In this document: positions 3,053 to 28,800 of the stretch, one piece after another
Numbering within the stretch: position 1 is the first letter of the stretch
Layout: every line of letters starts with the position of its first letter
NCBI GenBank assembly: GCA_965219665.1
Contig: CBDCOD010000017.1
Coordinates: 6,069-70,068 of the forward strand
Direction of reading: 5' to 3'
DNA from: Gammaproteobacteria bacterium
GTDB taxonomy: Bacteria > Pseudomonadota > Gammaproteobacteria > CAKMZV01
Length of the DNA: 64,000 nt
The notes under the pieces: model-generated
What the model was told of the DNA's origin: nothing
Seen by the model: only the letters and a program-made list of their open reading frames with translations
Database searches by the model: none
Program-made: the position numbers and the translations under genes

Positions 3053-3083
3053 GCTATATGCATTAAAGGCTATATAAGAATAA

Positions 3084-3111
3084 CCTACTGCATGCGTACG
3101 CATGCAGTAGG
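3084..3111 (-). terminator. Intercistronic hairpin / candidate attenuator between bufA and bufB
   Basis: Perfect 28-bp palindrome CCTACTGCATGCGT|ACGCATGCAGTAGG, giving about a 12-bp stem with a GUAC loop. It begins 18 nt after the bufA stop codon. In the mRNA sense it is followed by UUAUUCUUAUAU. Confidence 0.5.
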
Positions 3112-3129
3112 TCAAGCGTGAAGTATAAA

Positions 3130-3417
3130 TTACTTCGCAGGCTTAGTTGCAGCGACTATACCGCCCGTGAGCTTAGCACAAGTTCCCTTTGGAACATATA
3201 CCCACTCATTGTCGCTGTTGTTGCTCGTTGCCTGCCCGGCACAGCCATGCTTTTTATTCAAAGCACCGCAATCATTCTTGCCTGCTTTAGATACGCCAGC
3301 ACACTTCTCCCAAAATTTAGGTGTGTCAGGCACTGCTGCCTGTGCATTCATAGCAATTGAACCGACTGCCAATACACCAGCCAAAATTGAGGATTTACAT
3401 AATGTTGATTTATCCAT
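3130..3417 (-). CDS. bufA: DUF2282 / BufA1-type bufferin precursor peptide (Sec signal peptide plus 4-Cys core)
   Basis: 95 aa. Signal peptide MDKSTLCKSSILAGVLAVGSIAMNAQA|AV. Core EKCAGVSKAGKNDCGALNKKHGCAGQATSNNSDNEWVYVPKGTCAKLTGG matches the DUF2282 signature. GGAGA SD 5 nt before the ATG. First gene upstream of the DUF692 and DUF2063 genes. Confidence 0.85.
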   Translation of the reverse strand: MDKSTLCKSSILAGVLAVGSIAMNAQAAVPDTPKFWEKCAGVSKAGKNDCGALNKKHGCAGQATSNNSDNEWVYVPKGTCAKLTGGIVAATKPAK

Positions 3418-3704
3418 GATATTCTCCGTAATTTACGTCATATAAAAAGCTTGCAGCCTACACAATGGTTGCAAAGCACTTACAGTACAAATAAAGTGTA
3501 CTACTTATATAGACGTTACGTAATCCGATTTCATTGCAAAAAAAGTGTAATAACTCATGCTATGGAGCGTTTTTTTTCTGTTATTATCGCTCTTATCACA
3601 GCAATGCAAGCCCAACGTAGTTGGTTTGCAGGTTTCAAAATCGAAGTATCTGCCTATTTTCTGTGCCTCAAGCCCACCACAGCATACAGTATTATGACAT
3701 TAAT

Positions 3705-5039: not shown

Positions 5040-5164
5040 TATGAAGTCTCCTCATTGAATTTACTGACCACCACCTATAGATGGGCATAATGGCAGAATT
5101 ATAAGGAGGGCTGCCAGCAGATGATATAGGGCAGACAATCAAATTGAGTTTTAGGAGGTTTCTA

Positions 5165-5623
5165 CTAAGCAGGTTTTTCTCTATCTACCAATGTCAATAG
5201 AAAGTGACTAAGGAATTCATGTCTATTTTTATTATTGGATTTGTTAAATATGCTAATTGCCTGATTTTGAATAGTTTTTTCACTAACGCTCCGTAAGGAG
5301 GCTATCTCTTTATATGTAAACCCCTTTATAATCAGCATAGCGACTTCTTTCTCCGCTTTACTTAAAAGCCACCCCTCTAAAATATTTTCTATATAGACAG
5401 ACAAATCCTTTTCAAAGTCAGATAGTGCTTCCGAAGCCTCCCTAAGCCTAGCTTTATGTGCTTGTAACTCCCTAATGTTGTAGTATAACAACCAGCAAGC
5501 AAGTAACACAAATATTAATTCTATCCATAAGTGTACACCTATATCATCCACCCAAAAATCAAAAACAACATCCAGGACAAAGAAAGATAAGATAAATACA
5601 TTAATTATAACTATTTTATACAT
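5165..5623 (-). CDS. Membrane-anchored LuxR-family HTH transcriptional regulator
   Basis: Two N-terminal hydrophobic helices, a coiled linker, and a C-terminal LuxR/GerE HTH (LSKAEKEVAMLIIKGFTYKEIASLRSVSEKTIQNQAISIFNK). Confidence 0.75.
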   Translation of the reverse strand: MYKIVIINVFILSFFVLDVVFDFWVDDIGVHLWIELIFVLLACWLLYYNIRELQAHKARLREASEALSDFEKDLSVYIENILEGWLLSKAEKEVAMLIIKGFTYKEIASLRSVSEKTIQNQAISIFNKSNNKNRHEFLSHFLLTLVDREKPA

Positions 5624-5943
5624 AACTAACCTACTCCCGACTTATGGTACGTATTGTAAAATATTCTGTGCTTATTGACCAACTTTAGCGACACGCTGCG
5701 AATCGCAGTTTACGTTACAAAGTACTTACGCCAGAGCATACACTGTAATCTTACATTATTTATAATAAACGTCTTTGTCTTTTGATTAGGTAAACAAAAA
5801 GTCTACTGGATAGCGATATTTTGACAGAAAAAATCAGAACGTGAGGCTATTTTTATACTGGAAATGGCAACTACGGGCAGCACTACAATATTGATAAAAT
5901 TATTAGCCCTATCCTCATGTGCTTTATATCACTAATAATCTAG

Positions 5944-7323
5944 CTAATCTAAAGCCTTAAAGATATTTTCACACACTTTTTTGGCATCGCCGAAAACCAT
6001 GAAAGACTTATCTAAATAGAAAGCCGCATTAGGTATCCCTGCATACCCTGGCGCCATAGATCGCTTAATTATGAATATTTGCTTGGCATTTTGTACATCT
6101 AAAATGGGCATGCCATAAATAGGACTTGACTTATCTGTCTTCGCTGCTGGATTAAACACATCATTTGCGCCAATGACCAAAACAATATCAGTAGTTGAGA
6201 AATCACTATTGATTTCCTCCAACTCTAATATATCATCATAATCCACATCTGCCTCTGCCAAGAGTACATTCATATGACCTGGCATACGACCTGCTACTGG
6301 GTGAATAGCAAACCGTACCAATACGCCACGCTCCTTTAGGCAATCAACCACCTCTTTCAAAGCATGTTGGGCATGTCCTACTGCCATGCCATAACCTGGG
6401 ACAATAACAACCGATTCAGCATTCTGCATAAAATAGGCAACATCCTCTGCATGCGCCTGCTTAATTGACTCCCCTTCTGTTTGCACTACAGCAGTGGCAT
6501 CTTCTGTCCCAAAGCCACCCATCAATATACTAATAATAGATCGGTTCATGTTCTTGCTCATAATATAGCTGAGTATAGCACCCGATGCCCCCACCAGAGA
6601 ACCTGTAATAATAAGCACTGGATTAGACAAACTAAAGCCGATACCAACTGCCGCCCAGCCAGAATAGCTATTGAGCACAGACACTATCACTGGCATATCT
6701 GCACCACCAATAGGACTTACAGAAAGGAATCCAAAAAGCAAACCCACTACAAGCAGCAATACAAATAGCTCTAACTGTGCCTCATAGGCAAAAGCAACTA
6801 CTAAAGCAACTATAGTGAGTAAGAAAACGCCACTCACTACGCGCTGATTTTTGAACATAAGGAACTTCCAATTTGGAAAAACTCCTTGCAACTTCATAAA
6901 AGCAACGCACGAACCAGTAAAAGTAATAGAACCTATAACCAGCCCTACTGAAAGCTCTACTATCTGCCCAACATTTAACAAATCAATTCCATACTCTTCT
7001 GGTGACGTATACGCCGCAGACGCAATAAAAACAGCAGCCAAGCCTACAAAGCTATGGAATAACGCCATCAGCTGCGGTAAAGCTGTCATCTGAATGCGTA
7101 AGGCAATCAACGAACCAACCAAACCGCCAGACAAAATAGCAACAAAAATCCAAACAACATTATGTGTACTGGGCATAGCGATAGTGGTAAATACCACTAT
7201 TGCCATACCAACCATGCCAATCAGATTACCCCTTCGGGCACTAGATGGAGACGCCAGCCCGCGAATAGATAAAATAAAGCAAACTGCCGCAATCAGGTGA
7301 AAATAAACAGCAAAATTGTCCAT
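5944..7323 (-). CDS. pntB: NAD(P) transhydrogenase subunit beta
   Basis: 459 aa. Multi-TM N-terminal half plus a dIII NADP(H)-binding domain (VPGYGMAVGHAQH...HPVAGRMPGHMNVLLAEA...GANDVFNPAA). TAATG overlap with pntAB. Confidence 0.95.
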   Translation of the reverse strand: MDNFAVYFHLIAAVCFILSIRGLASPSSARRGNLIGMVGMAIVVFTTIAMPSTHNVVWIFVAILSGGLVGSLIALRIQMTALPQLMALFHSFVGLAAVFIASAAYTSPEEYGIDLLNVGQIVELSVGLVIGSITFTGSCVAFMKLQGVFPNWKFLMFKNQRVVSGVFLLTIVALVVAFAYEAQLELFVLLLVVGLLFGFLSVSPIGGADMPVIVSVLNSYSGWAAVGIGFSLSNPVLIITGSLVGASGAILSYIMSKNMNRSIISILMGGFGTEDATAVVQTEGESIKQAHAEDVAYFMQNAESVVIVPGYGMAVGHAQHALKEVVDCLKERGVLVRFAIHPVAGRMPGHMNVLLAEADVDYDDILELEEINSDFSTTDIVLVIGANDVFNPAAKTDKSSPIYGMPILDVQNAKQIFIIKRSMAPGYAGIPNAAFYLDKSFMVFGDAKKVCENIFKALD

Positions 7324-7610
7324 TACGACCTACTCTTACGCTTGGTGAACATAGACAGCATTCTATTGGTAATAAGAAAGCCCCCAAAAATATTAACACT
7401 TGCCAGAAAGATAGCGATAAACCCCAAAATTGCGCTTAAAGAAACGCCCTCTAAACCTGCAGCAATAATGGCTCCAACAATAACCACTGATGAAATCGCA
7501 TTAGTCACACCCATTAGCGGCGCATGAAGCGCAGGCGTTACTGACCAAACCACGTAATAGCCGACAAAGCATGCTAAAACAAATAAATATAACAGCGAAG
7601 TAAACTCCAT
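7323..7610 (-). CDS. pntAB: NAD(P) transhydrogenase subunit alpha part 2 (membrane part)
   Basis: 95-aa three-helix membrane protein between the dI and beta genes. This is the split pntAA/pntAB arrangement known from Rhodospirillum rubrum. Confidence 0.9.
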   Translation of the reverse strand: MEFTSLLYLFVLACFVGYYVVWSVTPALHAPLMGVTNAISSVVIVGAIIAAGLEGVSLSAILGFIAIFLASVNIFGGFLITNRMLSMFTKRKSRS

Positions 7611-7633
7611 TTTTATCCTTATCTTATAGAATA

Positions 7634-8770
7634 CTACTCAAAGAAAGCCTTCCAGTCCTCTGCTCTCAACACACCATCTTGGAACAACAGAGTCTGATCT
7701 AAAATATCATCCTCTATATCCACCTGTACTGTATTATTCTCGACTGATAATAGCTCCACAAAATGCACCATATTTTTAGCCAATAATTCGCTGGCAGTCT
7801 GCGCCACCATTGATGCCACATTGGAATAACCCAAAATATGCACACCCTCTTTACAAACAACTTTGCCATACTGACTCATACTGCAATTGCCACCAGCTGA
7901 CACTGCCAAATCAACAATGACTGACCCTTTTTTCATGCTTTTCACCATCGCATCATCTATGAGCACAGGGGCTTTTCTATTAGGAACCAACGCAGCACAA
8001 ATCACAATATCCTGCTCGGTAATCACTTGCCGAACCAAAGCATTTTGCTTCTGCATATAAGCCTCAGACATCGCCTTAGCATAGCCAGTAGAACTTTGAG
8101 CATCCTTAAACTCCTCATCCTCAACAGCGACAAACTTAGCACCCAAAGATTCCACCTGCTCTTTTGTACTGGGTCGCACATCTGTAGCACTCACTATTGC
8201 ACCTAAGCGTTTTGCTGTCGCAATGGCTTGCAACCCCGCAACCCCCACGCCCATCACCATTATCTTGGCTGCCTTAATCGTTCCTGCAGCGGTCATCATC
8301 ATTGGTACCGCTCGCGGCAAAAATTCAATAGCATCTAACACCGACTTATACCCGACCAGGTTGGCCTGTGAACTCAGCACATCCATAGACTGTGCTCGCG
8401 AGGTACGCGGAATACGCTCCAATGCAAACACATTAACCTTCTTCGCCAATAGTTTCTTGAGCACTTCAGCATTATGCATTGGCTGAGCAATACACACCAA
8501 ATACTTACCCGCCTCCAACAAATCGGTCTCTTTAAGTGTTGGAGGAGCCACCTTAAGTACCACATGGGCATCCTTCAGGGCTTCCACTGCATTTGCAACA
8601 ATTTTTGCACCAACAGCGATAAACTGCTCATCGCTAATGTGCGCCAAATTACCTGCACCACGCTCAACAACCACCTCAAAGCCTTTCTTTAAATACATTT
8701 GAACAGCAGCAGGACTTAATGCCACACGCCTCTCATGGGGTGCACTCTCTTTTAGAACAGCAATTTGCAT
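7634..8770 (-). CDS. pntAA: NAD(P) transhydrogenase subunit alpha part 1 (dI, NAD(H)-binding)
   Basis: 378 aa, alanine-dehydrogenase-like fold. MQIAVLKES..ERRVALSP and the Rossmann motif VMGVGVAGLQAIATAKRLGA. Confidence 0.95.
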   Translation of the reverse strand: MQIAVLKESAPHERRVALSPAAVQMYLKKGFEVVVERGAGNLAHISDEQFIAVGAKIVANAVEALKDAHVVLKVAPPTLKETDLLEAGKYLVCIAQPMHNAEVLKKLLAKKVNVFALERIPRTSRAQSMDVLSSQANLVGYKSVLDAIEFLPRAVPMMMTAAGTIKAAKIMVMGVGVAGLQAIATAKRLGAIVSATDVRPSTKEQVESLGAKFVAVEDEEFKDAQSSTGYAKAMSEAYMQKQNALVRQVITEQDIVICAALVPNRKAPVLIDDAMVKSMKKGSVIVDLAVSAGGNCSMSQYGKVVCKEGVHILGYSNVASMVAQTASELLAKNMVHFVELLSVENNTVQVDIEDDILDQTLLFQDGVLRAEDWKAFFE

Positions 8771-8914
8771 ACCTTAATAACCTTTGACTATGAAACCGCT
8801 TTCATTATCCTCTAAAACCACTTAAACATAACCAATTTATTTACCCAATATACCGAAAAAAACACACATTTTCCTACTCGGCATGCGCCATTACAAAACA
8901 AACAATACCAAATT

Positions 8915-9790
8915 TTAGCTCCGCACGAATGAGCTCATAAACACACCACCAAACACCAGCGCAGCCCCAACAATATGATAGTAAGCCAGCTGCTCATCTA
9001 ACAATCCAACACTTGCTACGGTTGTAAACACCGGCATTAAATGTATGCTCTGGCTCGCAGCAGCTGCACCTATTCTACGCACACAATACGCATACGTAAT
9101 AAAAGCAACAATTGAGGCAAACACCCCTATATACAGATAACTAACTATATTTAGCGCACCAGTCGGTATAGGCTCTGCTCCACTCAGCCCCCAAATAGCT
9201 GACAGCACCAACCAGCCCATCAGCATCGTAATCGCAAAAAACTCCAAAGAACTTAACTCCTCTGGTCTATAGCGCAATAAATTAGAATACAACGCCCAAA
9301 CAACCGCCGCAGCCACAATCACAAAATCGCCTGTAAAACCACCCCACTGATAACTGCTCTCCAAGCGGGTAGTAATAGCCACCACGCCCAACAGCGAGCA
9401 CACAACGCCTAATAACTGCATCCAATGCAACGTCTGCTTCCAAAACAGCAAGGCCAGAATAAGCGTAAACACAGGGATACTACTATTAAGAATGCTCGCG
9501 TTAGCCGCTTGTGTATGATGCAGCCCAGCATACACCATAGCGTTATACAGAGTAATACCACAAACTGCCGTTACAAATAACACACCAAAATGCGCTTTAA
9601 TAACTGCACGCTTCTTCCATAATTGAGGCAAAAACCATGGGATAAACAAAAGACTGGCAACGCTCCATCGAGCCATACTCAACGCCACTGGATCAATAGC
9701 CGTTTCTTCTGACAAAAAGCGGCCTATAATAAAATTACTGCTCCAGCACAGTGGAGCAACTGGAAACACTAACCAGACCCACTTACTCAC
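8915..9790 (-). CDS. EamA/DMT family transporter
   Basis: 291 aa, about 10 hydrophobic helices in two similar halves; typical DMT pattern. Confidence 0.8.
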   Translation of the reverse strand: MSKWVWLVFPVAPLCWSSNFIIGRFLSEETAIDPVALSMARWSVASLLFIPWFLPQLWKKRAVIKAHFGVLFVTAVCGITLYNAMVYAGLHHTQAANASILNSSIPVFTLILALLFWKQTLHWMQLLGVVCSLLGVVAITTRLESSYQWGGFTGDFVIVAAAVVWALYSNLLRYRPEELSSLEFFAITMLMGWLVLSAIWGLSGAEPIPTGALNIVSYLYIGVFASIVAFITYAYCVRRIGAAAASQSIHLMPVFTTVASVGLLDEQLAYYHIVGAALVFGGVFMSSFVRS

Positions 9791-9803
9791 CGTCTAGCCA
9801 CAC

Positions 9804-10430
9804 TCACTTAAAGCGAAATTTAGGCAATCCGACATTAGTACGAATCGCCCACAGCCTAAGCACAAAAATGAGCAAGCCCACAATTACCGACGCTAATACT
9901 GTACTCATACCAAAATGCAGCAACGCAATAAAGCCCAATGCACCACCCCACGACAGCGTTGCATACAATGCACTCGTAAAAACAATCGGATGCTCATTGC
10001 ATAGCACATCGCGCATAATACCGCCCATCACGCCTGTCAACATACCCATAAAACTGGCAGCAATAATAGAAATATCCATTGACAGCGCAACAATGGTTCC
10101 TGCAATAGAAAACGTAGCAAGTCCTGCTGCATCGGTGATAAGAAAATGCTGTGGACGGACACGCACCACACGAGCCACCATAAAGGTAATGATAGCACTC
10201 ACAACAGAAGCGACAAAAAATACTTGATCATACACCCAAAACACATCCCTATCCAACAACATATCTCGTAGCGAACCACCTCCCAATGCTGTTGTAATAG
10301 CAATAATAACCACTCCAAACAAATCAAACTGCTTATCACCTGCTTTAAGCACGCCAGATGCCGCAGACCCCACCACCGCAATCAACGTCAACCAATATAA
10401 AACCGTTATAAAATCAGAAACCAATACCAT
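9804..10430 (-). CDS. Trimeric intracellular cation channel (TRIC/UPF0126, YadS-like) family membrane protein
   Basis: 208 aa. Duplicated glycine motifs: ALGGGSLRDMLL and GVMGGIMRDVL. Confidence 0.8.
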   Translation of the reverse strand: MVLVSDFITVLYWLTLIAVVGSAASGVLKAGDKQFDLFGVVIIAITTALGGGSLRDMLLDRDVFWVYDQVFFVASVVSAIITFMVARVVRVRPQHFLITDAAGLATFSIAGTIVALSMDISIIAASFMGMLTGVMGGIMRDVLCNEHPIVFTSALYATLSWGGALGFIALLHFGMSTVLASVIVGLLIFVLRLWAIRTNVGLPKFRFK

Positions 10431-10529
10431 TGCTATTTTCTATGCAACCATGACTCCAAAAATAACGTACGGTAGTACAACGCCCGCAATATAGCACAGC
10501 CTATGTAAGCGCCTCACATCATGATAAAA

Positions 10530-11318
10530 CTATTTTTTAGGAACGGCAACCACCCTAAACCCATCTACACTAAATCCGCGATTGGGAAGGTTTGCCGCAC
10601 GATGCGCAAACCGCATGAAATGCTCAGGACAATGATGCGACCCACCTCGGCGCACTCGGGTTGTGCCATCCGCAGGTCCTTGGGGATTATGTGTTGTAAA
10701 ACGATCTGCATACGTATTACCGCTATACCAATCATCGACCCACTCCCACACGTTGCCCATCATATCGTACAACCCAAAAGCATTAGGTTTACGTGTTCCT
10801 ACTGGATGCGTGATATCGTCGGAATTGATAATAAACCACGCATAATCCTCTACCTCATCAGGGCGCATCCCCTGATCCCCTGCACGGGCTGCATACTCCC
10901 ACTCTGCTTCAGTAGGTAAGCGATAATCATACTGCTTATCTAACGCACTCAATTCCTGAGTGAAACGCTGTGCCATAAACCAGTTAATACCATTTACTGG
11001 CAAATTCTCCCAGTTATCGCGCTGCCAAGTATTACCGGGACGATTCTCCATCACCTCAAGCCACTGCTTCTGAGTAACCTCAGTTTGACCCATTAAAAAA
11101 GCATCAATACGCACCTTATGATACGGTGTCTCATCTACCACATCCGTCTCCTTAGGACTAGGAAACTCAGATAAGGCATCCTCCACATCCTCCGTACCCA
11201 TAAAAAAAGAACCACTCGGCACTTCAACAAAACGCATACCCAAAACATTAGTCACTTCCGCACGAACAGTACACACCAAAAGCACAGCAAATAGCGTTCC
11301 ACATAATAATTTATACAT
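10530..11318 (-). CDS. Secreted formylglycine-generating enzyme (FGE/SUMF1) family protein
   Basis: Signal peptide MYKLLCGTLFAVLLVCTVRA from the ATG at 11318 (the track start at 11372 is an extension). Motifs LPTEAEWEYAARAG, NAFGLYDMMGNVWEWVDDWY and RVRRGGS. Confidence 0.8.
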   Translation of the reverse strand: MYKLLCGTLFAVLLVCTVRAEVTNVLGMRFVEVPSGSFFMGTEDVEDALSEFPSPKETDVVDETPYHKVRIDAFLMGQTEVTQKQWLEVMENRPGNTWQRDNWENLPVNGINWFMAQRFTQELSALDKQYDYRLPTEAEWEYAARAGDQGMRPDEVEDYAWFIINSDDITHPVGTRKPNAFGLYDMMGNVWEWVDDWYSGNTYADRFTTHNPQGPADGTTRVRRGGSHHCPEHFMRFAHRAANLPNRGFSVDGFRVVAVPKK

Positions 11319-11580
11319 CCTTTCTACACCTCTTAAAAAACAAACTAACAGCCGCCTAATACATAGCGGCACACAAACGACTAATCAGTATACTGCATAC
11401 GCACTGTCCATCATCAGCCTTTTCTTCCAAATGTCAGCAAAACAACTGTAATAGGCATCGTTTATCCTATTACTCTGCGCAAAGCGCGGTCGCAGAACGA
11501 CATGCCACGACTACGCGCAACACGACAAACCACCCTTTGAAGCAGTACGACTGCTACGACAAGGCGCTCAAAAAAGAAAA

Positions 11581-12423
11581 TTATTTGCTTGCTGTGGTAT
11601 TTTGAACAAATTTGGCAACATGTTCATTAGCTGGATTCGCCAATATTTCATCGGGCGTGCCAATCTGACTAATCCCCCCCTCTTCAATAATGGCAATCCG
11701 TGAACCTATATGAATAGCCTCATTCAAATCATGTGTTATAAATATGATGGTTTTTTGCACCTTTTGTTGCAACTCTAGCAGTTGATCTTGTAACTCACAG
11801 CGAATAAGCGGATCTAACGCGCTAAAAGCCTCATCCATAAGCAAAATATCTGTATCGGCACTCAAAGCACGCGCTAAGCCAACACGCTGCTGCATGCCAC
11901 CGGAAAGTTGCGAAGGGTACAGAGCCTCATTACCCTCTAAACCCACTAAAACAAGCGTTTCAGCCGCGTGCTCTAACGCCTTCTTCTTGGGCACACCAGC
12001 AACCAACAGTCCATAAGCCGCATTCTCTAATACCGTTTTATGTGGCAACAGCCCAAAATGCTGAAAAACCATGCTCATTCTGGTACGCCTTAACTCAATG
12101 AGCGCCTTCGTATTCAAAGAGCATACATCTATATCCTCTAAAAAAATAGCGCCTTCCGTTGGCTCAATCAAACGATTGAAGAGCCGAATAAGTGTTGACT
12201 TGCCCGACCCTGACAAGCCCATCAACACGAATATTTCTCCACTACGCACATCCAAAGACACATCGTGCAAACCCACCGTACACTCTGTTTGGCTATATAT
12301 GCTTGCCTTATCCTCGCCCTGCTTAACTAAATCTAATGCAACAGGAATTTGCGCATCACTACCATAGATTTTATAGATATGCTCAAGGCGAATTTTGATA
12401 TCCCGACTCAAAACCAACCTCAA
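11581..12423 (-). CDS. ABC transporter ATP-binding protein (ProV/OpuAA-like, no CBS tail)
   Basis: Walker A GLSGSGKST, signature LSGGMQQRVGLARAL, Walker B ILLMDEAFSALD. TTG start overlapping the permease stop (TTGA). Confidence 0.9.
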   Translation of the reverse strand: MRLVLSRDIKIRLEHIYKIYGSDAQIPVALDLVKQGEDKASIYSQTECTVGLHDVSLDVRSGEIFVLMGLSGSGKSTLIRLFNRLIEPTEGAIFLEDIDVCSLNTKALIELRRTRMSMVFQHFGLLPHKTVLENAAYGLLVAGVPKKKALEHAAETLVLVGLEGNEALYPSQLSGGMQQRVGLARALSADTDILLMDEAFSALDPLIRCELQDQLLELQQKVQKTIIFITHDLNEAIHIGSRIAIIEEGGISQIGTPDEILANPANEHVAKFVQNTTASK

Positions 12424-13298
12424 TTAGAAGTATTCTGGCTACGCATAGCAGCGGTTCGCTTACCATACGCCTGTGCGATACGATCAAAAATAATAGCCAA
12501 AAATACAATCGCCAAACCTGCCAACAAACCTTTTGACACCTCAAGCCGCTGAATGCCCTGAAGCACCTGATAGCCCAAACCACCTGCACCAATCATAGAC
12601 GCTATCACCACCATAGAAAGAGCCAGCATCGTTGTCTGATTAATACCTGTCATAATCGTTGGTAAGGCCAGAGGGAACTCTACAGTAAACAGTTTTTGCC
12701 GTGCAGTCGTACCAAAAGCATCTGCCGCCTCCACTACTGCTGGATCAACTTGGCGAATACCCAAATTCGTCAAACGCACAATCGGTGGCAAAGCAAAAAC
12801 CAACGTTGCCAACACCGCAGGCACTTTTCCTGGACCCAGCAACATCACAAAAGGGATAAGATAAACAAACGTAGGCAACGTCTGCATAATATCCAACACT
12901 GGCAAAAACACCCTCTCAACACGATCAGAACGTGCCATAAAAATGCCCATGGGCAAGCCAATAAAAACAGCCATTAAGGTAGAAACCAGCATCAACACTA
13001 TAGTCTGCATAGTCTCTTCCCAATAGCCAATCGCACCACACAAAAATAGCAGCAGCATAATTAACAAACTACGCTTCCAGCACCGCGAGGCATGATAGGC
13101 AATCGCGCCAATAGCAATCAAAATAATATACCAAGGCACAGCAGTGAGCAAATCTTCCAAGCCAATCACAAGCTTAAGCAACGGCAGGAAAAAATCCTCT
13201 ATGCTCTCGCCAAAGTTAATTACCAAATCTTCAAAACGCTGATCTACTACATTACGCAGTGACCTGGTATCAAAAATGGAAGGAAAATTAGAAGCCAT
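12420..13298 (-). CDS. ABC transporter permease (ProW/OpuAB-like)
   Basis: 292 aa polytopic protein with an EAA-type loop region (VDPAVVEAADAFGTTARQKLFTVEFPLALP). Confidence 0.9.
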   Translation of the reverse strand: MASNFPSIFDTRSLRNVVDQRFEDLVINFGESIEDFFLPLLKLVIGLEDLLTAVPWYIILIAIGAIAYHASRCWKRSLLIMLLLFLCGAIGYWEETMQTIVLMLVSTLMAVFIGLPMGIFMARSDRVERVFLPVLDIMQTLPTFVYLIPFVMLLGPGKVPAVLATLVFALPPIVRLTNLGIRQVDPAVVEAADAFGTTARQKLFTVEFPLALPTIMTGINQTTMLALSMVVIASMIGAGGLGYQVLQGIQRLEVSKGLLAGLAIVFLAIIFDRIAQAYGKRTAAMRSQNTSN

Positions 13299-19545: not shown

Positions 19546-19909
19546 AAAAGCGAGCCGATCTATAAGCCGGGTTCTGTCATGAGCAGTCATTCATCTTGGC
19601 AAGCGTGTCACCACGCTGCTCTGCGCGAACTACCCGAAAGTCATGCGGGCAACATGTTGTATCCGAAGACACGTACTTTCCTATTTGTCTTGCTCCAGAT
19701 GGGGTTTACCCTGCCACTGCTGTTACCAGCAGAGCGGTGCGCTCTTACCGCACCATTTCACCCTTACCATTCACTACCTAAATAAGCTATGGCGGTATAT
19801 TTTCTGTGGCACTTTCCATCAGCTCACACTGTCCAGAAGTTATCTGGCATCTTGCCCTATGGAGCCCGGACTTTCCTCTGCGTACAGCGACTGCTTAACC
19901 GACTCGCCT
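19546..19909 (-). ncRNA. rnpB: RNase P RNA, bacterial type A
   Basis: The reverse complement contains GAGGAAAGUCCGGGCUCCAUAGGGCA, GGUAAGGGUGAAAUGGUGCGGUAAGAGCGCACC, GGUAAACCCCA and ACAGAACCCGGCUUAU, near-identical to the E. coli M1 RNA conserved regions. The 5' GCGAGUCGGUU pairs with the 3' GAUCGGCUCGC (P1). A T-run follows the 3' end. Ends are accurate to about +/-4 nt. Confidence 0.95.
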
Positions 19910-19913
19910 CACC

Positions 19914-19942
19914 ATTATAAAGGCAATGACTGGGAGGCTGAA
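19914..19942 (-). promoter_or_regulatory. Candidate sigma-70 promoter of rnpB
   Basis: Perfect TATAAT (19919 to 19914, minus sense) 6-7 nt upstream of the predicted mature 5' end. Weak -35 TTCAGC at a 17-bp spacing. Confidence 0.45.
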
Positions 19943-19993
19943 TCTTTACCGAGCATGCAAATGAGTTGCGTTCATCCTACCAATGGTGCTAAA

Positions 19994-20466
19994 ATGAAAC
20001 AACTTGTGAACGAATTTTATGGTAACTGGACACTATGTGTGCGCCCACAAAAACAGCAACACTGCTTAAAAGTGCTATCCTTTGCCAGCACAGGACTACT
20101 TGCAAATAATCTGATTACAGTTGATTCCGACCCCAATTTACACACTGTCGTCGTTGCTGGATCGCAGCAAAACCTTGGAGAAACAGTCGCTCCCTCCTCA
20201 ATAATCCAAAGCATCTTTAGTTACCCCTTTGACAATGTCCTAAGCTATCGCATCACCACAGGCAACAATCTATTTGCCATAGATCGCACCAGGCACCCAC
20301 TACTACCCCACCTGCTACTAACGGTGGCGGTAGTGGTGGCGGCAGCCGTCGCCGCAGCGGCGGCAGTGGTGGCTGTAGTCTGCACCATACGGCAACAACC
20401 GATTGGGTGCTCTGGCTACTCGTGCTGCTTAGTGTCGTTGCCTTACGCCGACGACGCTACAGTTAG
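19994..20466 (+). pseudogene. Frameshifted small ORF: cadherin-like module, Pro/Thr-Gly/Ser linker and GGC-type C-terminal sorting tail
   Basis: Frame 2 from ATG 19994 reads MKQLVNEF...NVLSYRITTGNNLFAIDRT. Near 20290-20310 the sense continues only in frame 1: APTTTPPATNGGGSGGGSRRRSGGSGGCSLHHTATTDWVLWLLVLLSVVALRRRRYS, then stop at 20464-20466. A strong terminator follows. The frame 1 segment has no start codon of its own (stop at 20230-20232). No Sec signal peptide is evident. Confidence 0.5.
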
Positions 20467-20551
20467 CGTTACTTGCCGCCACGAGCGTACAACAATCTGT
20501 GCAGTCCACCACCAGTACCACTGGTTAAAAAACCTGCTTAAAAACCTTGTT

Positions 20552-20584
20552 ACACTGCCCCCAGAGGGCAGTGTTTGTTTTTTT
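20552..20584 (+). terminator. Rho-independent terminator
   Basis: 9-bp GC-rich stem ACACTGCCC / GGGCAGTGT, 5-nt loop, then TTGTTTTTTT. It lies 85 nt after the sorting-tail stop codon and 27 nt before the glcB ATG. Confidence 0.75.
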
Positions 20585-20610
20585 ACTGTTTATATTGAAA
20601 TTGTAATACT

Positions 20611-22788
20611 ATGAAAAATTCTGCTGTTCAAATCGCTAATGTATCCGTTTGCCAATCATTATTTGAGTTTATCAACAATGAGGCATTACCCAATACGGGC
20701 ATTGAGAGTGCCCATTTTTGGGAACAGTTGAGCGTAATTGCCACTGATCTCCTCCCTGAAAATCGAGCGTTACTTGCTAAGCGCAACGCCTTACAGCAAC
20801 AAATAGATGCGTGGTATCAACAAGGAGGCACAGACCCTGTAGCGCATAAGGAATTTTTACAGTCTATTGGCTATTTGAGCGTAGAGCAAGAGGATGATTT
20901 TTGTGTAGATACAGCGCATGTGGATTATGAGATAACCGATATTGCAGCTCCCCAATTGGTCGTTCCGGTCAATAATGCACGCTATGCCCTGAATGCAACC
21001 AATGCGCGCTGGGGCTCTTTATATGATGCTCTGTATGGTACCGATGTTATTGATGAGCACGATGGTAAAGAGAAAGGGAGTGCATTCAATCCTAAACGGG
21101 GGCATGCTGTTACCGAGTATGTGATGCGCCTGTTGATAGAATGGCTCCCTTTGCAGCATGGTACGCTGGCAGATGCTACTGCTTTTTATGTACACAATGG
21201 TGCGCTGCATATTACTGTAAATGGCAAAATAACGCAGTTGCACGATGATGCTGTGTGGGTAGGCTATCAAGGGAAGGCTGATAGTCCATCAGCATTGCTT
21301 TTTAAGCATCATAACTTGCATATTGAGCTGCTGTTTGATAAGAGCCACCCTGTAGGAAAAAGGAGTCCTTGTGGGCTAAAAGATGTTGTATTAGAGTCCG
21401 CTGTTACGACTATTCAGGATTGTGAGGATTCTGTTGCTGCGGTAGATGCAGAGGATAAAGTGCTTGTATATCGAAATTGGTTAGGGCTTATGCTAGGTAC
21501 CTTAAGCGAGACAGTGCATAAGAATGGTATACCAGTTGAGCGTACCCTCAATCCGAATAAGGCATATAGTGCACCTGATGGCTCACTATTTGAGCTAAGC
21601 GCGCGCTCCTTACTTTTGTGCCGTAATGTGGGGCATTTAATGACTAATCCTGCTATTATCATGGCAGATGGGTCCGAAATACCCGAGGGGATTATGGATT
21701 GTATGGTGACTGCATTATGCGCCTTACATGATTTAACGAATAGACGAGTTAATTCACAAGCGGGCAGTATGTATATTGTTAAACCCAAGATGCATGGACC
21801 TGAGGAGGTGGCTTTTGCTGTCAAATTGTTTGGGCGTGTTGAGCGCGCTTTGGGACTGGCAGAGAATACGCTCAAAATCGGCATTATGGATGAAGAACGC
21901 CGCACAAGCATTAACCTCAGGGCCTGCATTCGTGCAGCAAAATCGCGCATTGTATTCATCAATACAGGGTTTTTAGATCGTACCGGAGATGAGCTACATA
22001 CTGCCATGTATGCAGGCGCTATGCTGCCTAAAGGCGATATGAAAGCAGCTACATGGTTGCAGGCATACGAGAAAGCAAATGTTATTGTTGGCTTACAGTG
22101 TGGCTTGCCCGGACATGCACAAATAGGCAAGGGTATGTGGGCAATGCCTGATGAAATGGCGCGTATGATGCATGATAAAGTCGGACACCCCGCATCAGGA
22201 GCTAATACCGCGTGGGTCCCTTCTCCTACAGCAGCCACCTTACATGCTATTCACTATCATCAGGTGGATGTGCTTGCCGTTCAGCAACAGTTAATGCAGG
22301 AGTGCTTAACATACCCTTTGGATGCGCTTTTGACGATACCTATTTTGAATACTGTGCCCAGTTCTGAGGCTATAGCGCAAGAGTTAGATAGCAATTGTCA
22401 GAGCATATTGGGCTATGTAGTACGCTGGATTGATCAGGGCATTGGATGCTCTAAAGTGCCAGATATTAACCATGTGGGCTTGATGGAGGATCGTGCTACC
22501 TTACGTATTTCTTCACAGCTACTTGCAAACTGGCTGCTGCACGGCTTGATTACTAAGGAGCAAGTTAGCAATGCTATGCAGCGCATGGCAGCGGTAGTAG
22601 ATGCACAAAATGCACATGATGCTGCCTATACGCCAATGGCTCCTGAATGTGATGGTCTAGCGTTTACTGCAGCTTGTACATTGGTGTTTAATGGCGCTAC
22701 AGTGGAAAACGGCTATACAGAGCCTGCTTTACATCATTTTCGCTTGCTGAAAAAAACGGAAAATACATCTGCCTCAACAGCAGAGTAG
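20611..22788 (+). CDS. glcB: Malate synthase G
   Basis: 725 aa, collinear with E. coli GlcB features: N-terminal F.NNEALPNTGIESAHFW, then IVKPKMHGPEEV, GIMDEERRT and NTGFLDRTGDE. Confidence 0.95.
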   Translation: MKNSAVQIANVSVCQSLFEFINNEALPNTGIESAHFWEQLSVIATDLLPENRALLAKRNALQQQIDAWYQQGGTDPVAHKEFLQSIGYLSVEQEDDFCVDTAHVDYEITDIAAPQLVVPVNNARYALNATNARWGSLYDALYGTDVIDEHDGKEKGSAFNPKRGHAVTEYVMRLLIEWLPLQHGTLADATAFYVHNGALHITVNGKITQLHDDAVWVGYQGKADSPSALLFKHHNLHIELLFDKSHPVGKRSPCGLKDVVLESAVTTIQDCEDSVAAVDAEDKVLVYRNWLGLMLGTLSETVHKNGIPVERTLNPNKAYSAPDGSLFELSARSLLLCRNVGHLMTNPAIIMADGSEIPEGIMDCMVTALCALHDLTNRRVNSQAGSMYIVKPKMHGPEEVAFAVKLFGRVERALGLAENTLKIGIMDEERRTSINLRACIRAAKSRIVFINTGFLDRTGDELHTAMYAGAMLPKGDMKAATWLQAYEKANVIVGLQCGLPGHAQIGKGMWAMPDEMARMMHDKVGHPASGANTAWVPSPTAATLHAIHYHQVDVLAVQQQLMQECLTYPLDALLTIPILNTVPSSEAIAQELDSNCQSILGYVVRWIDQGIGCSKVPDINHVGLMEDRATLRISSQLLANWLLHGLITKEQVSNAMQRMAAVVDAQNAHDAAYTPMAPECDGLAFTAACTLVFNGATVENGYTEPALHHFRLLKKTENTSASTAE

Positions 22789-22820
22789 CCCTCTTTAAGA
22801 AAAGCGGTATTTTTATTACT

Positions 22821-25800
22821 TTAGATTTGAGTCTTTCTACTCATCTTCACAGTAGATAGATGATAGCGGCGGCGAGAAAGTAGTATTTTAAGCAGTGCGA
22901 GCAAGCAGAGCAGCAGTAAAGATGGGTCATAATCGCTGTCCAATATCAAGGCACAGCCACCACTTTCTTCACTTGAACGACTGTCTAAAACAATAAAGAC
23001 GTCTGTGTTTGCAACACCTACTAAGGAGAGAACATTGCCATTTAATCCCTTAGCTCTATCGTACGATCCAGCATTATAAGCGTCACTATCATTGATACCG
23101 CCATCTGTAATGCGAACAAGAATACACCGATTACCGCTGGTTAGTCCAGAAGAGTACAGTCCACTATCTGCCTCAGGGCAACTGCCATTGGCTAAGAGTG
23201 GTGCGCTGGATGTGGCATCACCTTGACTGGTGTCAAAATCGCGCCAACCTATTCCCAGTAGATACGTTCTTAACACTAAGGAGCCATTGGGTAGCTGGCT
23301 AGGTAAGCGAATTGTGGCTAACGCAATGCTACCAACATGACGAAGGCCTGCCATTTCCATGTCAATTAAACCTGTTCTATATTCAAATACGGGGTCTGCT
23401 ACATAGCCTGTTCCTCTACCTAAGCCGTTTAGGCTCTCAATGCTTTCTTCTGTTAGCACCAGCCCTGTAGAGAGTGCCATAGAGCGCGCAAAATAACCAG
23501 AGCGCGCAACGTTCTGTGACTCACTTAGTCTGTACGATGCGCTCTCAGTCCATATGATACGACGAATACTGGTACTCTCTTGTATTTCATCAGGCAGGCC
23601 GTCTTGCTCTGAGTCAATCAGTTGACTCACCTCTATTTGATTTGGCAGCACAGTCAATACCAGACTACCTCTGGACGCGGCAGTGATACCCTGAGCACTT
23701 CTACGGTGCACACTCACTGTAACTTCATATACACCCTCTGCAAGATTGCCAGGATTAAATATTATGCGCTGGCAAGATCCATGACCAGAACTCAGTAGGC
23801 CACCATGGCTTTCATGATGCGAGAGACAGAGTGCACTACCTGTTATGCGAGATACTATTTCTGTGGTTCCTATGGACCAGTCCAAGAAGGTCTGCGCTGA
23901 CTGCCAGCCACCTAAGCGGGCGGTTATCGTAACCGTTCCACCACCTGCTCTTATGGCTCGAACCTTGCCATTGCCGTTGCCTTCTTGGAATAGTTCTAAC
24001 CAGACTACTGGTTGGTTGTGGATTTGTGGATTTGTGCCGTCTAAAATTTCTTGCCCATCTCCGACACCATCGCCGTCTAAGTCACTATTAAACTGCGCAT
24101 TCACCACCCCTAAGCCCTGCAAATAGAATTCTACAGCGTTGCTTAAACCGTCGGTATCACTGTCTGCTGCACCGTTACTTATAGGGCTATTTGCATTGGT
24201 CCGAGAGTACCCTTGGCGCACTTCAATAATATCGGGCAAACCGTCACCATCTGTATCTGTTTCAGCTGTTAAGCCAGAGTTTGAGCTACAGCTGATGTTA
24301 TCAGATGGTATCGCTGGATTTGCATCCGCACAGCCAATCAGGGTCTCTATCGTATCAGGAATACGATTTCCGTTGATGTCTGTTTCAATATCTGCCTCAT
24401 GTGGATTGAGGTTGTTAGCAACTTCAAATACGTCTGGATAACCGTCAGCATCAGCATCACTTATGGCACTGACGCCCGTTATGCCAATACTGGCAAGATA
24501 GCCTTCAATCGCATTAGTAATACCGTTAGCATTACTATCACCTGCTCCATTCAAATACGGAGAGTCTGCATCGTTTATACCATTGGATAGAATATACTCT
24601 AAACCATCTGGCAGACCATCACCATCCGAGTCAAACGCTCCATCAGGAATGCCGTCATTGTTGCTATCTGCCACATTGCCAGCGCCTCGTTCTTCAAAGC
24701 GATTTTGTAGGCCATCGCCATCTGAATCCTCTACGTGATCAAAGACACTATCAAGATCTGTATCACGGTTATTTGGCGCAGTATTGAACTCCCGCAACTC
24801 TAAAATATTACTTAAACTGTCACCATCTGCATCTTCATCTGCATCGCTTAGCCCATTGTTATTTGTATCGCTTAGAGTGGCTGAGGTATTTGTTAGGTAG
24901 AATTCTTCACCGTCTGTCAGACCATCGCCATCAGTATCAGCACGATATGGATCAGTGCCTATCTGAACCTCTTCCAGATTAGTGAGCCCGTCTGAGTCAA
25001 AGTCTTCGGCACCATCATTTATACCGTCATTATCTGTGTCAGGGTCTGTGGGTAAGGCCGTAAGCGTTATGGCACGTGAGGTGGATGCAAATATATTCCA
25101 TTCAGCCCCATCGGATAGACCATCACCATCTGTGTCAGGATTTCTGGGGTTAATGCCCAAAAATAATTCAAACCCATCGGACAGACCATCATCATCTGTG
25201 TCTCCATTATGGTCTGAAATAATACCGGTTGCTGCATTGGAAGCGAGTAGGCTAAGCACGCTATCGCCTACAGCAGAAATAACGACGCTTTCTGTACTTT
25301 CGTCATTGCTATCTCCCAAAACGTCAAAACTAATGAGTGCACTACTGCTGCCTTGCTCTATGGTAGCAGAGTGTACGGTTGTGTAGTCGGCGCCCGCAGT
25401 AGCAGTTCCTGTGGTAATAATAGTGAAGTCAATTGCATTCTGAGTAAAGTTGAGGAATGGTATGGATACCTCTGCCTGTAGTGGAACGCCTTGCAGTTGT
25501 TCCTCAAACCCTGGCTCTACTCCGTGCTGAACAATAGCAACAGTAACTGGAATATGTGCTAAAGCCTCATTATCTATAATGATTACAGTCGCTGAGGATG
25601 TGAGGTTTATATCATCAATAATTGAATCAAATTCACTGGGTTGCGGTATCATACTGATTGTGGTTAATCCAACCACTACAGTCTCCCTGCCCTCTAATAG
25701 GGTATCATCTAATATTTCTATTGCGAGGCTGGCTGTGCTACGCCCATCTAAGATGTCATAACTGGCAGCGCCAGATGATGTGTTGCCAAGCACAAAATCT

Positions 25801-28800
25801 ACACCTTCAATAGCAATGCTACTGGAAACGTTTTGTACACCAATGGAAAGCGTTGAACCCGTAGCGTTAATAATCGCTTCACCAGACTGGTCAGTTAATG
25901 TAACTCGAATATTCCCATGGCGGGTATTGGTGAATACTTGAGCCGGTTCAGCGACCAAGTTCTGTATGGTTAGGCTTTCTTGTCCATCTGTGATTAGATA
26001 GCGCAGTGACAACGTTTTACTTTGCTCAGCATCTAATACATCAATAGTAATGCCTGATCCAAGAGAAATAGCTGCATTATCAGAGCCGATTAGCCCAATG
26101 GTGGTCTCCTCACTTAACTCCAGTGCAGCGTCATCCAACGCCCTTAACAGAATACTTGAGCTACGAGCCCCATGGGGGATGATGATATTAAGCGCGCTTA
26201 ATGAAACATCCTCACTGGCAAGGGTTGCTGATCCTGATACCCCTAAAAAGAGGCTAATATCTGTGCCAGTCAGATTAGTGGATGCTAACGAGACAACTAT
26301 CTCCAGCTCTTCATCAGATTCAAGAATCGTATGCGTAGTAGCAGCAAAGTTTACAGCAATATTCTGATTATTTTCATCATGGATTGTAACGGCATAAGCA
26401 CTCTGAGCAGGCGTAGTGAAGTGCGGGAAGGTTGGGGCTGTAAATTGAATAATAATGTTCTCTTCATCTTCAAATAGTGTGTCTGTACTGACATAGAGCA
26501 CAATTGCTGCACTCGATTGCAGCGGATCAATCACAAAAGTTTGACTACTTAGTGTGTAATCCTCACCAAGCGTTGCATCTCCTCCCAGAATGAATGGGAA
26601 ATATAGGGGAATTGATGTGTGGTTCACTGTATCTAAGCTAAGTACCGCTGTAATAGAGCCTACATTTTCTGCCACAGCATCATCTACACCAAGGCGATAT
26701 GTATGTGGACCTAAGTCATTATCCAGAATATCAATGATGGCAGTATTGCCCAACGATACCGCGCGCAAGTCCCCTGTAGGGTTAGAAACTTGTAATATGG
26801 CAGTTTCTGTCGTCTCAAAACGCAAATCATCTATGAGCATAATATCTGTGAGAACTTCATTGCTGCCGGTGCTAAGCACTACAGTAGTGCGCGAGGTAAT
26901 ATCTAATTCGTCAGCCGTAGCATTGATGGTGGTAACGGCTACCACAAAGGTCAATGGCTTCCACTCATTGACGACATTACCTGCCAGGGCGACCCGCACT
27001 GACGCATGTTCTCCTTCTGTGCCTTCGTTCTCTATAAATCGCAGTGAGACAGCCGCATCTCTAAATTCATCATCGATAATGTGGGTAGAGGTTGTCAACG
27101 GTAAGTCATCTGCACTAATGCCAATACTGGCACCAATACCATTTATCTCAATACCAAAGGTTTCAGTGCTTTCTAAGAGGCTATCATTTTGAGCCAGTAG
27201 GCTAAATTGCGCGCTTTGACGATTAGGGGCAATGGCAATAGTAAAGGTTGCTGGGGAAACTATATCAGAGCCTATACGGGCTGAATCATTGACTAAACGC
27301 ACACTATAGAGCAGCGTAGAGTGTGTCTCGTTAATACGACCAATGGAAAGGCGATATACATTAGGAATAATGTTATCTTCGCGTATGTCTGAGAAATTGA
27401 TTTCGGCAGAAACACCTGTATTATCATTGTCTGTGATAGTGAAGCTGACTACATTACTGAGTTGATCTATCAGGTCGCTACGGAAGGCTGCGGATAAGGA
27501 CTCGCTGTTCTCTAAACGTTCATCATCTACTGCCCCTATTGTGAATACGCCACTACTACTACCAGTCGGAATGCTAATTAAGTTGTCACTGGGCGTTATC
27601 GTATAGTCATTGGTTTCAGCAACCCCTGAGAATAATGCTTCAATAATGATGGGCTGAGCGCGACCATTGGCAAGCATTTCTCCATTGTTGTTCTCTAAAT
27701 AGATGATTACATTTTGCGTTTCTCCTTCTGCAAGGGTAAACTGAGGCGTGCTGATTATAGAGACGGCATCTACCTCATCATCTATGATACTTAAAAGCAC
27801 CTGTGATTCGCTTATACCTGTACGCAACTCTGGGTTTGCTGACACATCCGCCATGACAACAAATGTTTCTGTTGCCTCAATAAGGAAGTCATTGAGCACA
27901 GTTAGGGGGAATATAGCAGAGGTACTACCGTGCGCAATAGATACCATATTTGCCATATTGTAGTCATCTCCTCTAACTGCTTCACCGCTTGGGAAGGCAA
28001 CCATTGTATGCAATGTCGAGCCCGTGTTATTTGTAGAGCCAATGGCAATAAGAATCTGCGTGGCAGTTGGTATGTTGGTGGATGATTGTTCGGCAAGAAT
28101 CAAGTCTGTGGCTAATACTTGTACTATGATGTTTCTATTGTCGTTATCTACAATCCTGTAGCGTACAACGCTTTCGCTGAGAGTCGTACGCGTGTCACTT
28201 GCGGTTATGGTTACATCAAATGGCTCATCATTTTCAAACAAGTCATCGTCGATAACTGCAAAAGAGGCTTGGGCAGCGTTAAGACCCTCTCTTATGGTGA
28301 GGTTCGAAACAGTAATGATGTCCGTGTTCGTGGTTTGTGAGCTATCCAAATATGCGCGCTGAATGCCAGAAGTGGATACGTCAGAGAATGCCAAATTAAA
28401 GGATAGACTAAGCCCTACACCCAACATGTCAACTTCTTCTTGCAACTGTAGCCTCAATATGGCAGGAGTCTCTGCTTGCTCGCGTGGCTGCTGTGGTGTC
28501 AATACTTGAACTGTAGTGCTTTCATTATCAAAAATTGTGACATGCGTTGTCTCAACACTAACATTCACTAACGTACTGTCGTATATATCTGTTAATGCTA
28601 ATGCTACTGATTCACTAAATTCTAATACTCTATCATCATGTGTAGCATATGTGATAGTCGTATAAGTGCTATCTATTGCTATAACAGCATCTGCAACAAA
28701 AGCATAGTCAACTGGGTCACCAATGCCGCCTGCTACTCGTGATGCACTATTTGCCAAGTTACTGCTTGGTGTGGCAATCTGAATAAAGAGCGGTACACCC

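Follow-up and report, generated by a model that had tools for sequence, protein, structure and literature searches.

How does a bacterial protein of more than 13,700 residues come to be held at the cell surface? This question is raised by a 64-kb window (the whole stretch of DNA analysed here, 64,000 nucleotides of contig CBDCOD010000017.1), in which one open reading frame (ORF) on the minus strand encodes a giant adhesin-like protein. The giant adhesins of Gram-negative bacteria are textbook substrates of type I secretion systems (T1SS). A megadalton adhesin that carries a Cys-type sorting tag would instead follow a route made up of Sec export, an intramembrane protease and a lipid tether, and this route has been shown experimentally so far just for MYXO-CTERM proteins of ordinary size. 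MYXO-CTERM is one of the tripartite C-terminal signals that contain a Cys, together with JDVT-CTERM and Synerg-CTERM as well as CGP-CTERM. Having examined the tail of the giant protein, we think it likely that its last ~50 residues form a JDVT-CTERM sorting signal, that is, the surface anchor of this adhesin-like protein, processed by the protease MrtJ. The giant protein is a new and extreme member of an already known, if rare, kind of signal, and no other carrier of such a tag that we encountered in this analysis comes near it in size.

The C-terminal tail of the giant protein

On the minus-strand translation of 22821-23720, the protein ends in ...SGGCALILDSDYDPSLLLLCLLALLKILLSRRRYHLSTVKMSRKTQI, followed by the stop codon. 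A preliminary description of this locus had quoted this end as ...SSEESGGCALILDSDYDPSLLLLCLLALLKILLSRRRYHLSTVKMSRKTQI or ...SRSSEESGGCALILDSDYDPSLLLLCLLALLKILLSRRRYHLSTVKMSRKTQI; the quotation is exact, stop included, and the same end was recovered in the assemblies of four sequencing runs. That description had also taken the tail for a sortase-class tripartite signal rather than the C-terminus of an RTX/T1SS protein, and our analysis agrees with it. The stretch from the GG of the GGC motif to the last codon (22824-22961) lies at the extreme C-terminus and has the expected layout: the GGC signature, the predicted transmembrane (TM) helix PSLLLLCLLALLKILLS and an Arg cluster (RRR) which ends 14 residues before the stop. 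The register after the signature Cys reads C-ALILDSDY-DP, with the Asp at +9. An AlphaFold model of the 230-residue C-terminal fragment, which we used for the terminal helix alone, places a helix at 197-218 that begins at the Pro, with low confidence (mean pLDDT 49, from a 6-sequence alignment). JDVT-CTERM domains are defined by an invariant Cys, by an Asp-Pro with its Asp at the ninth residue past that Cys, by a helix rich in Leu and by a cluster of Arg (Haft, 2023, bioRxiv 10.1101/2023.06.07.544157).

When the isolated tail of 53 residues was compared with NCBIfam, the sole matching family was JDVT-CTERM (NF033191), with a score of 29.1 bits (E 6.6e-7) for a curated cut-off of 27 bits. Replacing the Cys by Ala lowered this score to 14.8 bits, replacing DP by AA to 7.6 bits and replacing RRR by AAA to 18.8 bits. 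No JDVT-CTERM match was left when the Cys and DP were both changed, when the signature alone was shuffled with the helix and RRR kept, or in any of four full shuffles of the tail. The score depends on family-specific positions, not on a generic helix followed by arginines. The preliminary description had suggested the Cys as a processing or lipidation site, as proposed for Cys-containing sorting signals; its role as the key residue is borne out by the drop in score on its replacement and by its invariance in the alignment of relatives described below. One could still argue that the resemblance is due to chance and that any Leu-rich helix with RRR would match a model that is short (35 positions) and rich in low complexity, the more so as the score lies near the cut-off. 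We find this hardly credible, given the shuffles, the E value, and the homologous upstream domain and invariant alignment columns that tie the tail to bona fide members of the family.

These ties come from an exhaustive search (HMMER/phmmer) with the last 299 residues against 1.84 billion representative proteins, which gave 1134 relatives at E<=0.001, including 126 at E<=1e-10, the best at ~1e-19; a word-indexed search with the same residues had returned no relatives. What the giant protein and the 1134 relatives have in common is the domain that precedes the tail, here called the pre-anchor domain, which resembles the choice-of-anchor U family. Two relatives (P0151 and P0054) score 57-62 bits for choice_anch_U, and both pass the cut-offs of choice_anch_U and JDVT-CTERM. 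Counted among the best 150 of the 1134 relatives, GGC tails are present in ~56, with the C-x8-D register in 25 of these (the next residue being P, A, M, T, F or L), tails of the form GG...helix...RR in 44 and an end in ...TYxF in 10. Representative GGC tails of the relatives score 29-54 bits for JDVT-CTERM, and extensions of 1-17 residues past RRR are present among the relatives. We then aligned the giant C-terminus with 15 GGC-tail relatives (alignment A1). The G-C and Asp(+9) columns are invariant in A1; the giant tail and accepted JDVT-CTERM domains are thus homologous and share one register. Searching with A1 as a profile yielded 8 proteins only, on short contigs with uninformative neighbours.

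The preliminary description had preferred a GlyGly-CTERM-like variant, a kind of tail that would be cut by rhombosortase. This guess was a near miss, because true GlyGly-CTERM tails elsewhere follow this same pre-anchor domain: the tail of P0010 scores 21 bits for GlyGly-CTERM (TIGR03501, cut-off 15.5 bits), and the 44 relatives with GG...helix...RR tails have the same succession of a GG pair, a TM helix and arginines as the giant tail. The giant tail itself, however, gave no match at E<=10 in the checks against GlyGly-CTERM, PEP-CTERM (TIGR02595) and MYXO-CTERM (TIGR03901, cut-off 20 bits) that had been suggested for it, and Pfam finds nothing in it. In GlyGly-CTERM tails the helix directly follows GG(S/A), whereas here it is set apart from the GG by the Cys and by a spacer of 9 residues with DP at its end, and it is the change of Cys or DP that makes the JDVT-CTERM score collapse. 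In addition, the scans of the larger ORFs at 1-22788 with NCBIfam and Pfam revealed no rhomboid-family gene. The acidic spacer of ~8 residues, to which the preliminary description had drawn attention, is indeed present but is no novelty, as it is JDVT-CTERM's own C-x8-D-P register. Taken together, we judge a GlyGly-CTERM variant cut by rhombosortase to be highly improbable.

The protein that bears this tail is visible only from its C-terminal side. Its frame stays open through 63998 at the right end of the window, and therefore also 5' of the TTG at 63965, which is the listed start of the ORF yet unproven as such; the true N-terminus thus lies outside the window. The visible part amounts to 1.44 MDa, with an isoelectric point of 4.05, and contains cadherin-like, Big_9, Calx-beta and TSP3 repeats. 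Big_9 and cadherin domains occupy the N-terminal part of the visible stretch, followed at residues ~1140-7000 (visible numbering) by a repeat region that includes seven near-identical units of 609 residues, and at ~7000-12,930 by a second region of divergent Calx-beta-type repeats; after ~12,930 come Calx-beta domains, Ca-binding TSP3 repeats, the pre-anchor domain and the tail. To judge from these predicted domains, the make-up is that of a Ca-binding adhesin fibre. The protein is strongly depleted in Lys (0.2%) and very acidic (1800 Asp+Glu for 406 Lys+Arg). The seven units (1827 bp each) were found by self-BLAST and missed by Tandem Repeats Finder, whose period limit was 500; short-read contigs break up at these repeats, and the assembled copy number may be uncertain. 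When an N-terminal fragment of the visible protein was compared with genome contigs, the sole match was to Cyclobacteriaceae, at 27% identity.

Size, repeat architecture and Ca-binding domains of this kind are typical of the T1SS adhesins LapA, SiiE and MpIBP, and a T1SS operon could be located upstream of the gene, outside the window. If the giant protein were such an adhesin, its hydrophobic C-terminus would be unrelated to sorting. That it should be one seems to us very unlikely. A regular-expression search through all 13,725 residues found 0 GGxGxD motifs, just as had been noted at first sight, and 0 full RTX nonapeptides; the C-terminus consists of a TM helix and an Arg cluster that match the hidden Markov model (HMM) of a sorting signal; and no T1SS components (ABC, MFP or TolC-like) were found among the larger ORFs of the 22.8 kb downstream of the giant gene. 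The HMM scans, the shuffles and the regular-expression searches led us to reject the chance, GlyGly-CTERM, MYXO-CTERM, PEP-CTERM and RTX readings of the tail.

The expected protease and a second tail

As the tail matches JDVT-CTERM, the enzyme expected to act on it would be MrtJ, a glutamic intramembrane protease of the CPBP family, and not a rhombosortase or an exosortase. We looked for this enzyme in 80 metagenome loci encoding the pre-anchor domain, where small multi-pass ORFs were sought by the CPBP motifs EExxxR, FxxxH and HxxxN. Of the ten candidate ORFs that we scanned, each ~140-190 residues long, nine reach 72-102 bits for MrtJ (NF033192), six of these at or above the cut-off of 75 bits, and the tenth (locus L061) has 40.8 bits. 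An HMM was built from these MrtJ ORFs and run on the 80 loci and on the window. A MrtJ ORF is present in 43 of the 80 loci, in 40 of them directly past the stop codon of the client gene (on the same strand or convergent) and in two directly upstream of the client. Where a locus leaves 500 bases or more of room, MrtJ adjoins 42 of 52 genes with a Cys tail versus 1 of 22 genes with another tail, and this single case in fact has an S-C tail. At 90% identity the MrtJ ORFs group into 27 clusters, at 50% into 7, and the association is therefore not that of one lineage counted repeatedly. In the published data the enzyme was adjacent in 16 of 17 cases, and within 4 kb in 17 of 36 (bioRxiv 10.1101/2023.06.07.544157). 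Our counts reproduce the published association between tail and MrtJ and extend it to the giant protein's own pre-anchor domain family.

The relatives also include a distinct class of Cys tail, (S/G)GC(S/T)(I/L/M/V)(S/T)...(D/E)W(W)L...WLG...R/K-rich, which is seen in P0037, P0045, P0069, P0083, P0101, P0121, P0147 and L061 (4003-5071). This class falls under the JDVT-CTERM cut-off, with 17.8 bits for the tail of P0147. The Cys-tail gene of L061 is adjoined by a CPBP protease that reaches 49.7 bits for the myxosortase core model and just 40.8 bits for MrtJ. The L061-type tail and its CPBP protease may be an undescribed sister pair of signal and enzyme.

A second JDVT-CTERM tail, ...GGSGGCSLHHTATTDWVLWLLVLLSVVALRRRRYS, lies within the window, 2.4 kb from the giant tail. 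It outscores the giant's own tail for JDVT-CTERM, and it also reaches 23-27 bits for MYXO-CTERM (TIGR03901), which is lower than its JDVT-CTERM score. In this assembly, the frame of the second tail has no start codon. Compared with the window, 14 bases are inserted after 20074 in runs X2, X3, X4, X5 and X10, and with this insertion the frame that starts at the ATG at 20035 has a signal-peptide-like N-terminus (MCAPTKTATLLKSAILALLSFASTGLLANNLITVD...). Other, in-frame cadherin-like sequence (...FAIDRINGAITLTAA, ...YERIIISVTEAPTTTPP) follows at 20288/20291 in the contigs of X1, X2, X3, X5 and X10 (in those of X4 on the left side only), with a combined length of at least 2 kb in X2. A 138-base contig of X3 spans the deletion junction of the window; the long and the deleted form of the second gene therefore both exist, in a polymorphic population. 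A further deletion, of 18 bp at 20339 in the Gly/Ser linker of this gene, is seen in X2. The long form, apparently provided with a signal-peptide-like N-terminus, fits a Sec route. Because this tail stands in the same window as the giant one, the JDVT-CTERM signal is used more than once in this genome or lineage; the signal has been described as typically one per genome (bioRxiv 10.1101/2023.06.07.544157).

Proposed processing and export, and the case for decay

How could such a tail act on such a protein? The giant protein would be exported over the inner membrane starting from its N-terminus, which lies outside the window. The helix PSLLLLCLLALLKILLS would then halt the transfer, and RRR with the basic tail would remain in the cytoplasm, as their sequence suggests. 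The Cys of GGC would be modified, probably lipidated according to a published hypothesis, and by homology MrtJ, a CPBP glutamic intramembrane protease of the myxosortase family, would recognise the C-x8-DP register inside the membrane and cut just after the Cys. In this way the acidic, Ca-binding repeat fibre of ~1.4 MDa would stay attached through its C-terminus and serve as an adhesin on the cell surface of a bacterium that is host-associated and probably a gammaproteobacterium. For the giant protein we infer the signal peptide, the Cys modification, the cleavage, the Sec route and the passage of the outer membrane by a megadalton chain, in analogy to the published sister system. There, MrtX cleaves MYXO-CTERM in M. 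xanthus as well as in E. coli, the Cys is required, and the working model leads from Sec through lipidation and cleavage to the type II secretion system (T2SS) (PMC11980579). The Sec or other inner-membrane route that the preliminary description had supposed would be in accord with this model.

Several observations weigh against a JDVT-CTERM anchor processed by MrtJ. When the last 299 residues are scored together, NF033191 gives 23.4 bits, under the cut-off of 27, which makes the assignment borderline, and the pre-anchor domain scores 16.7 bits for choice-of-anchor U (NF041766), for which the cut-off is 32. The tail departs from the family description in having a second Cys within its helix (LLLLCLL), where the description has a single Cys (some relatives, such as P0044 and P0089, likewise have two), a helix gap of 16 residues versus the usual 14, and an extension of 14 residues past RRR. 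As for the enzyme, the scans of the larger ORFs at 1-22788 found neither a CPBP/MrtJ gene nor an exosortase, and the MrtJ HMM, applied with full sensitivity, gave a best E of 0.09 against the six-frame stop-to-stop ORFs of at least 40 residues in the window. The slot directly downstream of the giant gene, which holds MrtJ in ~80% of related loci, is taken by malate synthase G. The cognate protease must be encoded upstream of the giant gene or at another place in the genome. Furthermore, the N-terminus, where a signal peptide would be expected, is beyond the window, none of the relatives found is longer than ~4,100 residues, so that processing and export of the giant protein are an extrapolation, and we know of no JDVT-CTERM protein that has been studied experimentally.

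Some of these observations could also mean that the tail is an orphan, descended from JDVT-CTERM in a host-restricted bacterium where MrtJ has been lost or is no longer used, leaving an uncleaved inner-membrane anchor or a gene on its way to a pseudogene. The lack of MrtJ in the 64 kb and in its usual downstream slot, the borderline score and the atypical features of the tail would all be in line with such decay, as would the internal deletion and frameshift in the neighbouring second JDVT gene, which show that genes of this kind decay or vary in the population. Nevertheless, the 41-kb frame of the giant gene is intact, and the Cys, DP and RRR are all kept. The tail region (22773-23028) shows zero nucleotide differences in the independent assemblies of four runs (X1, X2, X5, X6) that bear two host labels, even between strains ~2% apart in the flanks: the more distant strain is that of X5 and X6, and X5 has 16 differences over the 790 bases compared (~2%), all flanking this region, whereas X1 is identical to the window around the tail and X2 has one change, located in the neighbouring gene. 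In other runs the second gene has a long form with both of its ends intact. Finally, the missing adjacent MrtJ is not decisive, because an adjacent enzyme is lacking as well in 10 of the 52 related loci and in roughly half of the published cases, where MrtJ lies within 4 kb in just 17 of 36. We therefore consider an orphan or decayed tail rather improbable, and keep to a JDVT-CTERM sorting signal as the likely nature of the tail.

A larger claim would be that a protein of more than 13,700 residues (>1.4 MDa) is exported by Sec, processed in the manner of MrtJ and tethered by lipid on the surface of a host-associated bacterium; this we hold possible but doubtful. If it were true, no client of any C-terminal sorting system would come near the giant protein in size, and JDVT-CTERM would be a multi-client signal in this lineage (at least two clients here), not a one-client signal. 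An outer-membrane route able to pass a megadalton fibre would also be implied, be it T2SS, which the cargo of MYXO-CTERM and GlyGly-CTERM uses, or another. The giant protein is in this respect an extreme test case for the cargo size and the outer-membrane crossing of the Cys-tag route. It would also extend the little-studied JDVT-CTERM/MrtJ system to a host-associated bacterium, in which the giant protein probably mediates attachment. As the tail falls under the curated HMM cut-off when scored in context, JDVT-CTERM clients among long proteins are probably under-called.

Host association, other features and known systems

The window sequence is present in runs X1-X10, among them a 102-Gb Hi-C library, and the labels of these runs name two eukaryote organisms; no RNA run is among the runs that hold the giant gene. 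The word depth of the sequence is ~180-fold in X2 and up to ~190-fold overall, and the runs with the second host label hold a strain that has diverged by ~2%. Because of the two host labels, the Hi-C library and the high depth, we regard the bacterium as abundant and host-associated, living with a eukaryote. The closest PDB entries to its malate synthase G are 5oas and 5vfb, which we take to be the enzyme of Pseudomonas aeruginosa; this likeness, together with a GC content of ~44%, is consistent with a gammaproteobacterium.

The features of the window are collected in Table 1, including a bufferin-type operon for a ribosomally synthesised and post-translationally modified peptide (RiPP), followed by genes for an extracytoplasmic function (ECF) sigma factor and possibly its anti-sigma factor. 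A 323-residue ORF at 19643-20614 (+) was considered as a partner protein and rejected as spurious-looking: its composition is odd, it matches no family, and its span runs into both the RNase P RNA and what is left of the second JDVT gene.

Table 1. Positions of the giant gene, its C-terminal signal and the other features of the window
Feature	Position	Strand	Basis or remark
Giant adhesin-like ORF	22821-63998	-	At least 13,725 codons, N-terminus beyond the window; stop codon 22821-22823
JDVT-CTERM domain match SGGCALILDSDYDPSLLLLCLLALLKILLSRRR	22866-22964	-	NF033191 model positions 3-35 of 35, SGGC to RRR
Signature Cys (TGT) of the GGC motif	22953-22955	-	Predicted modification site, cleavage expected just after; invariant in A1
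Asp-Pro	22923-22928	-	Asp exactly nine residues past the Cys, the JDVT-CTERM hallmark; Asp (D196) invariant in A1
Hydrophobic Leu-rich segment PSLLLLCLLALLKILLS, predicted TM helix	22875-22925	-	Hydropathy; includes a second Cys and one Lys
Arg cluster RRR with 14-residue basic extension YHLSTVKMSRKTQI, predicted cytoplasmic end	22824-22874	-	Sequence
Pre-anchor domain, remote choice-of-anchor U type	23043-23633	-	Conserved Cys pair, DGGxNDxD motif
Calx-beta domains and bacterial TSP3 (Ca-binding) repeats	23721-26720	-	Directly upstream of the pre-anchor domain
Seven near-identical tandem units, 1827 bp (609 aa) each	47465-59061		Within the giant gene; self-BLAST
Terminator-like hairpin and T-run	22768-22784	-	37 nt past the giant gene stop, inside the convergent malate synthase gene at its 3' end
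Malate synthase G, convergent	20611-22788	+	1122 bits; occupies the usual MrtJ position
Second JDVT-CTERM tail	20233-20463	+	Regular expression C-x8-D...helix...RR at ORF ends; 37.4-39.7 bits
Remnant of second JDVT-CTERM surface protein gene	20035-20463	+	Frameshifted and with an internal deletion in the present assembly; long form with both ends intact elsewhere (other runs)
Bacterial RNase P RNA class A	19547-19906	-	302 bits
444-aa lipoprotein-like ORF	3705-5039	-	Long Asp-rich (DxDxDG-like) stretch, two repeated C-terminal modules; no NCBIfam family
Bufferin-type RiPP operon	1004-3417	-	With MNIO maturase BufB
Small Cys-containing secreted precursor-like ORF	3130-3417	-	Bufferin-type operon
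MNIO maturase BufB	2225-3115	-	327 bits
Partner ORF of the bufferin-type operon	1477-2301	-	No family match
ECF sigma factor	1004-1525	-	After the bufferin-type genes
Possible single-pass anti-sigma factor	402-1007		After the ECF sigma factor

Among known systems, the giant protein is like LapA, SiiE and MpIBP in being megadalton, acidic and Ca-binding, with tandem Ig-like, cadherin and Calx-beta repeats, and it is likely an adhesin as they are. It differs from them in having no RTX repeats, in a TM helix and Arg cluster that stand in place of the T1SS signal, and in that no T1SS genes were found in the 22.8 kb of the window downstream of it. With the choice-of-anchor U proteins (NF041766) it shares a homologous domain before the tail, and its relatives end in alternative anchors; the giant's copy of this domain is divergent and stands at the end of a megadalton protein. 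GlyGly-CTERM and its rhombosortase offer a GG pair, a TM helix and a basic cluster, and the same choice-of-anchor U-type domain in other proteins. The enzyme there is of the rhomboid serine protease class, however, and the giant tail has a Cys and C-x8-DP, with ten residues from GG to helix.

MYXO-CTERM and MrtX of M. xanthus have the same architecture and an enzyme of the same CPBP glutamic intramembrane protease superfamily, and they are the only members of this group for which Cys-dependent cleavage has been proven by experiment (PMC11980579). Unlike the giant tail, which gives no match to TIGR03901, MYXO-CTERM tails have no DP and often read GCGC, and they come with dozens of clients per genome and an enzyme that is not adjacent. 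With respect to JDVT-CTERM and MrtJ, the differences lie in a cargo more than three times larger than any relative found, in a tail score that drops under the cut-off in context, in the atypical helix and extension of the tail, in at least two tails within 64 kb and in a window where no MrtJ was found. The likeness to this system lies in the tripartite tail itself, with the key Cys in GGC, the Asp-Pro at +9, the Leu-rich helix and the Arg cluster, in the score of the isolated tail above the cut-off, and in the relatives with the same pre-anchor domain, which have an adjoining MrtJ.

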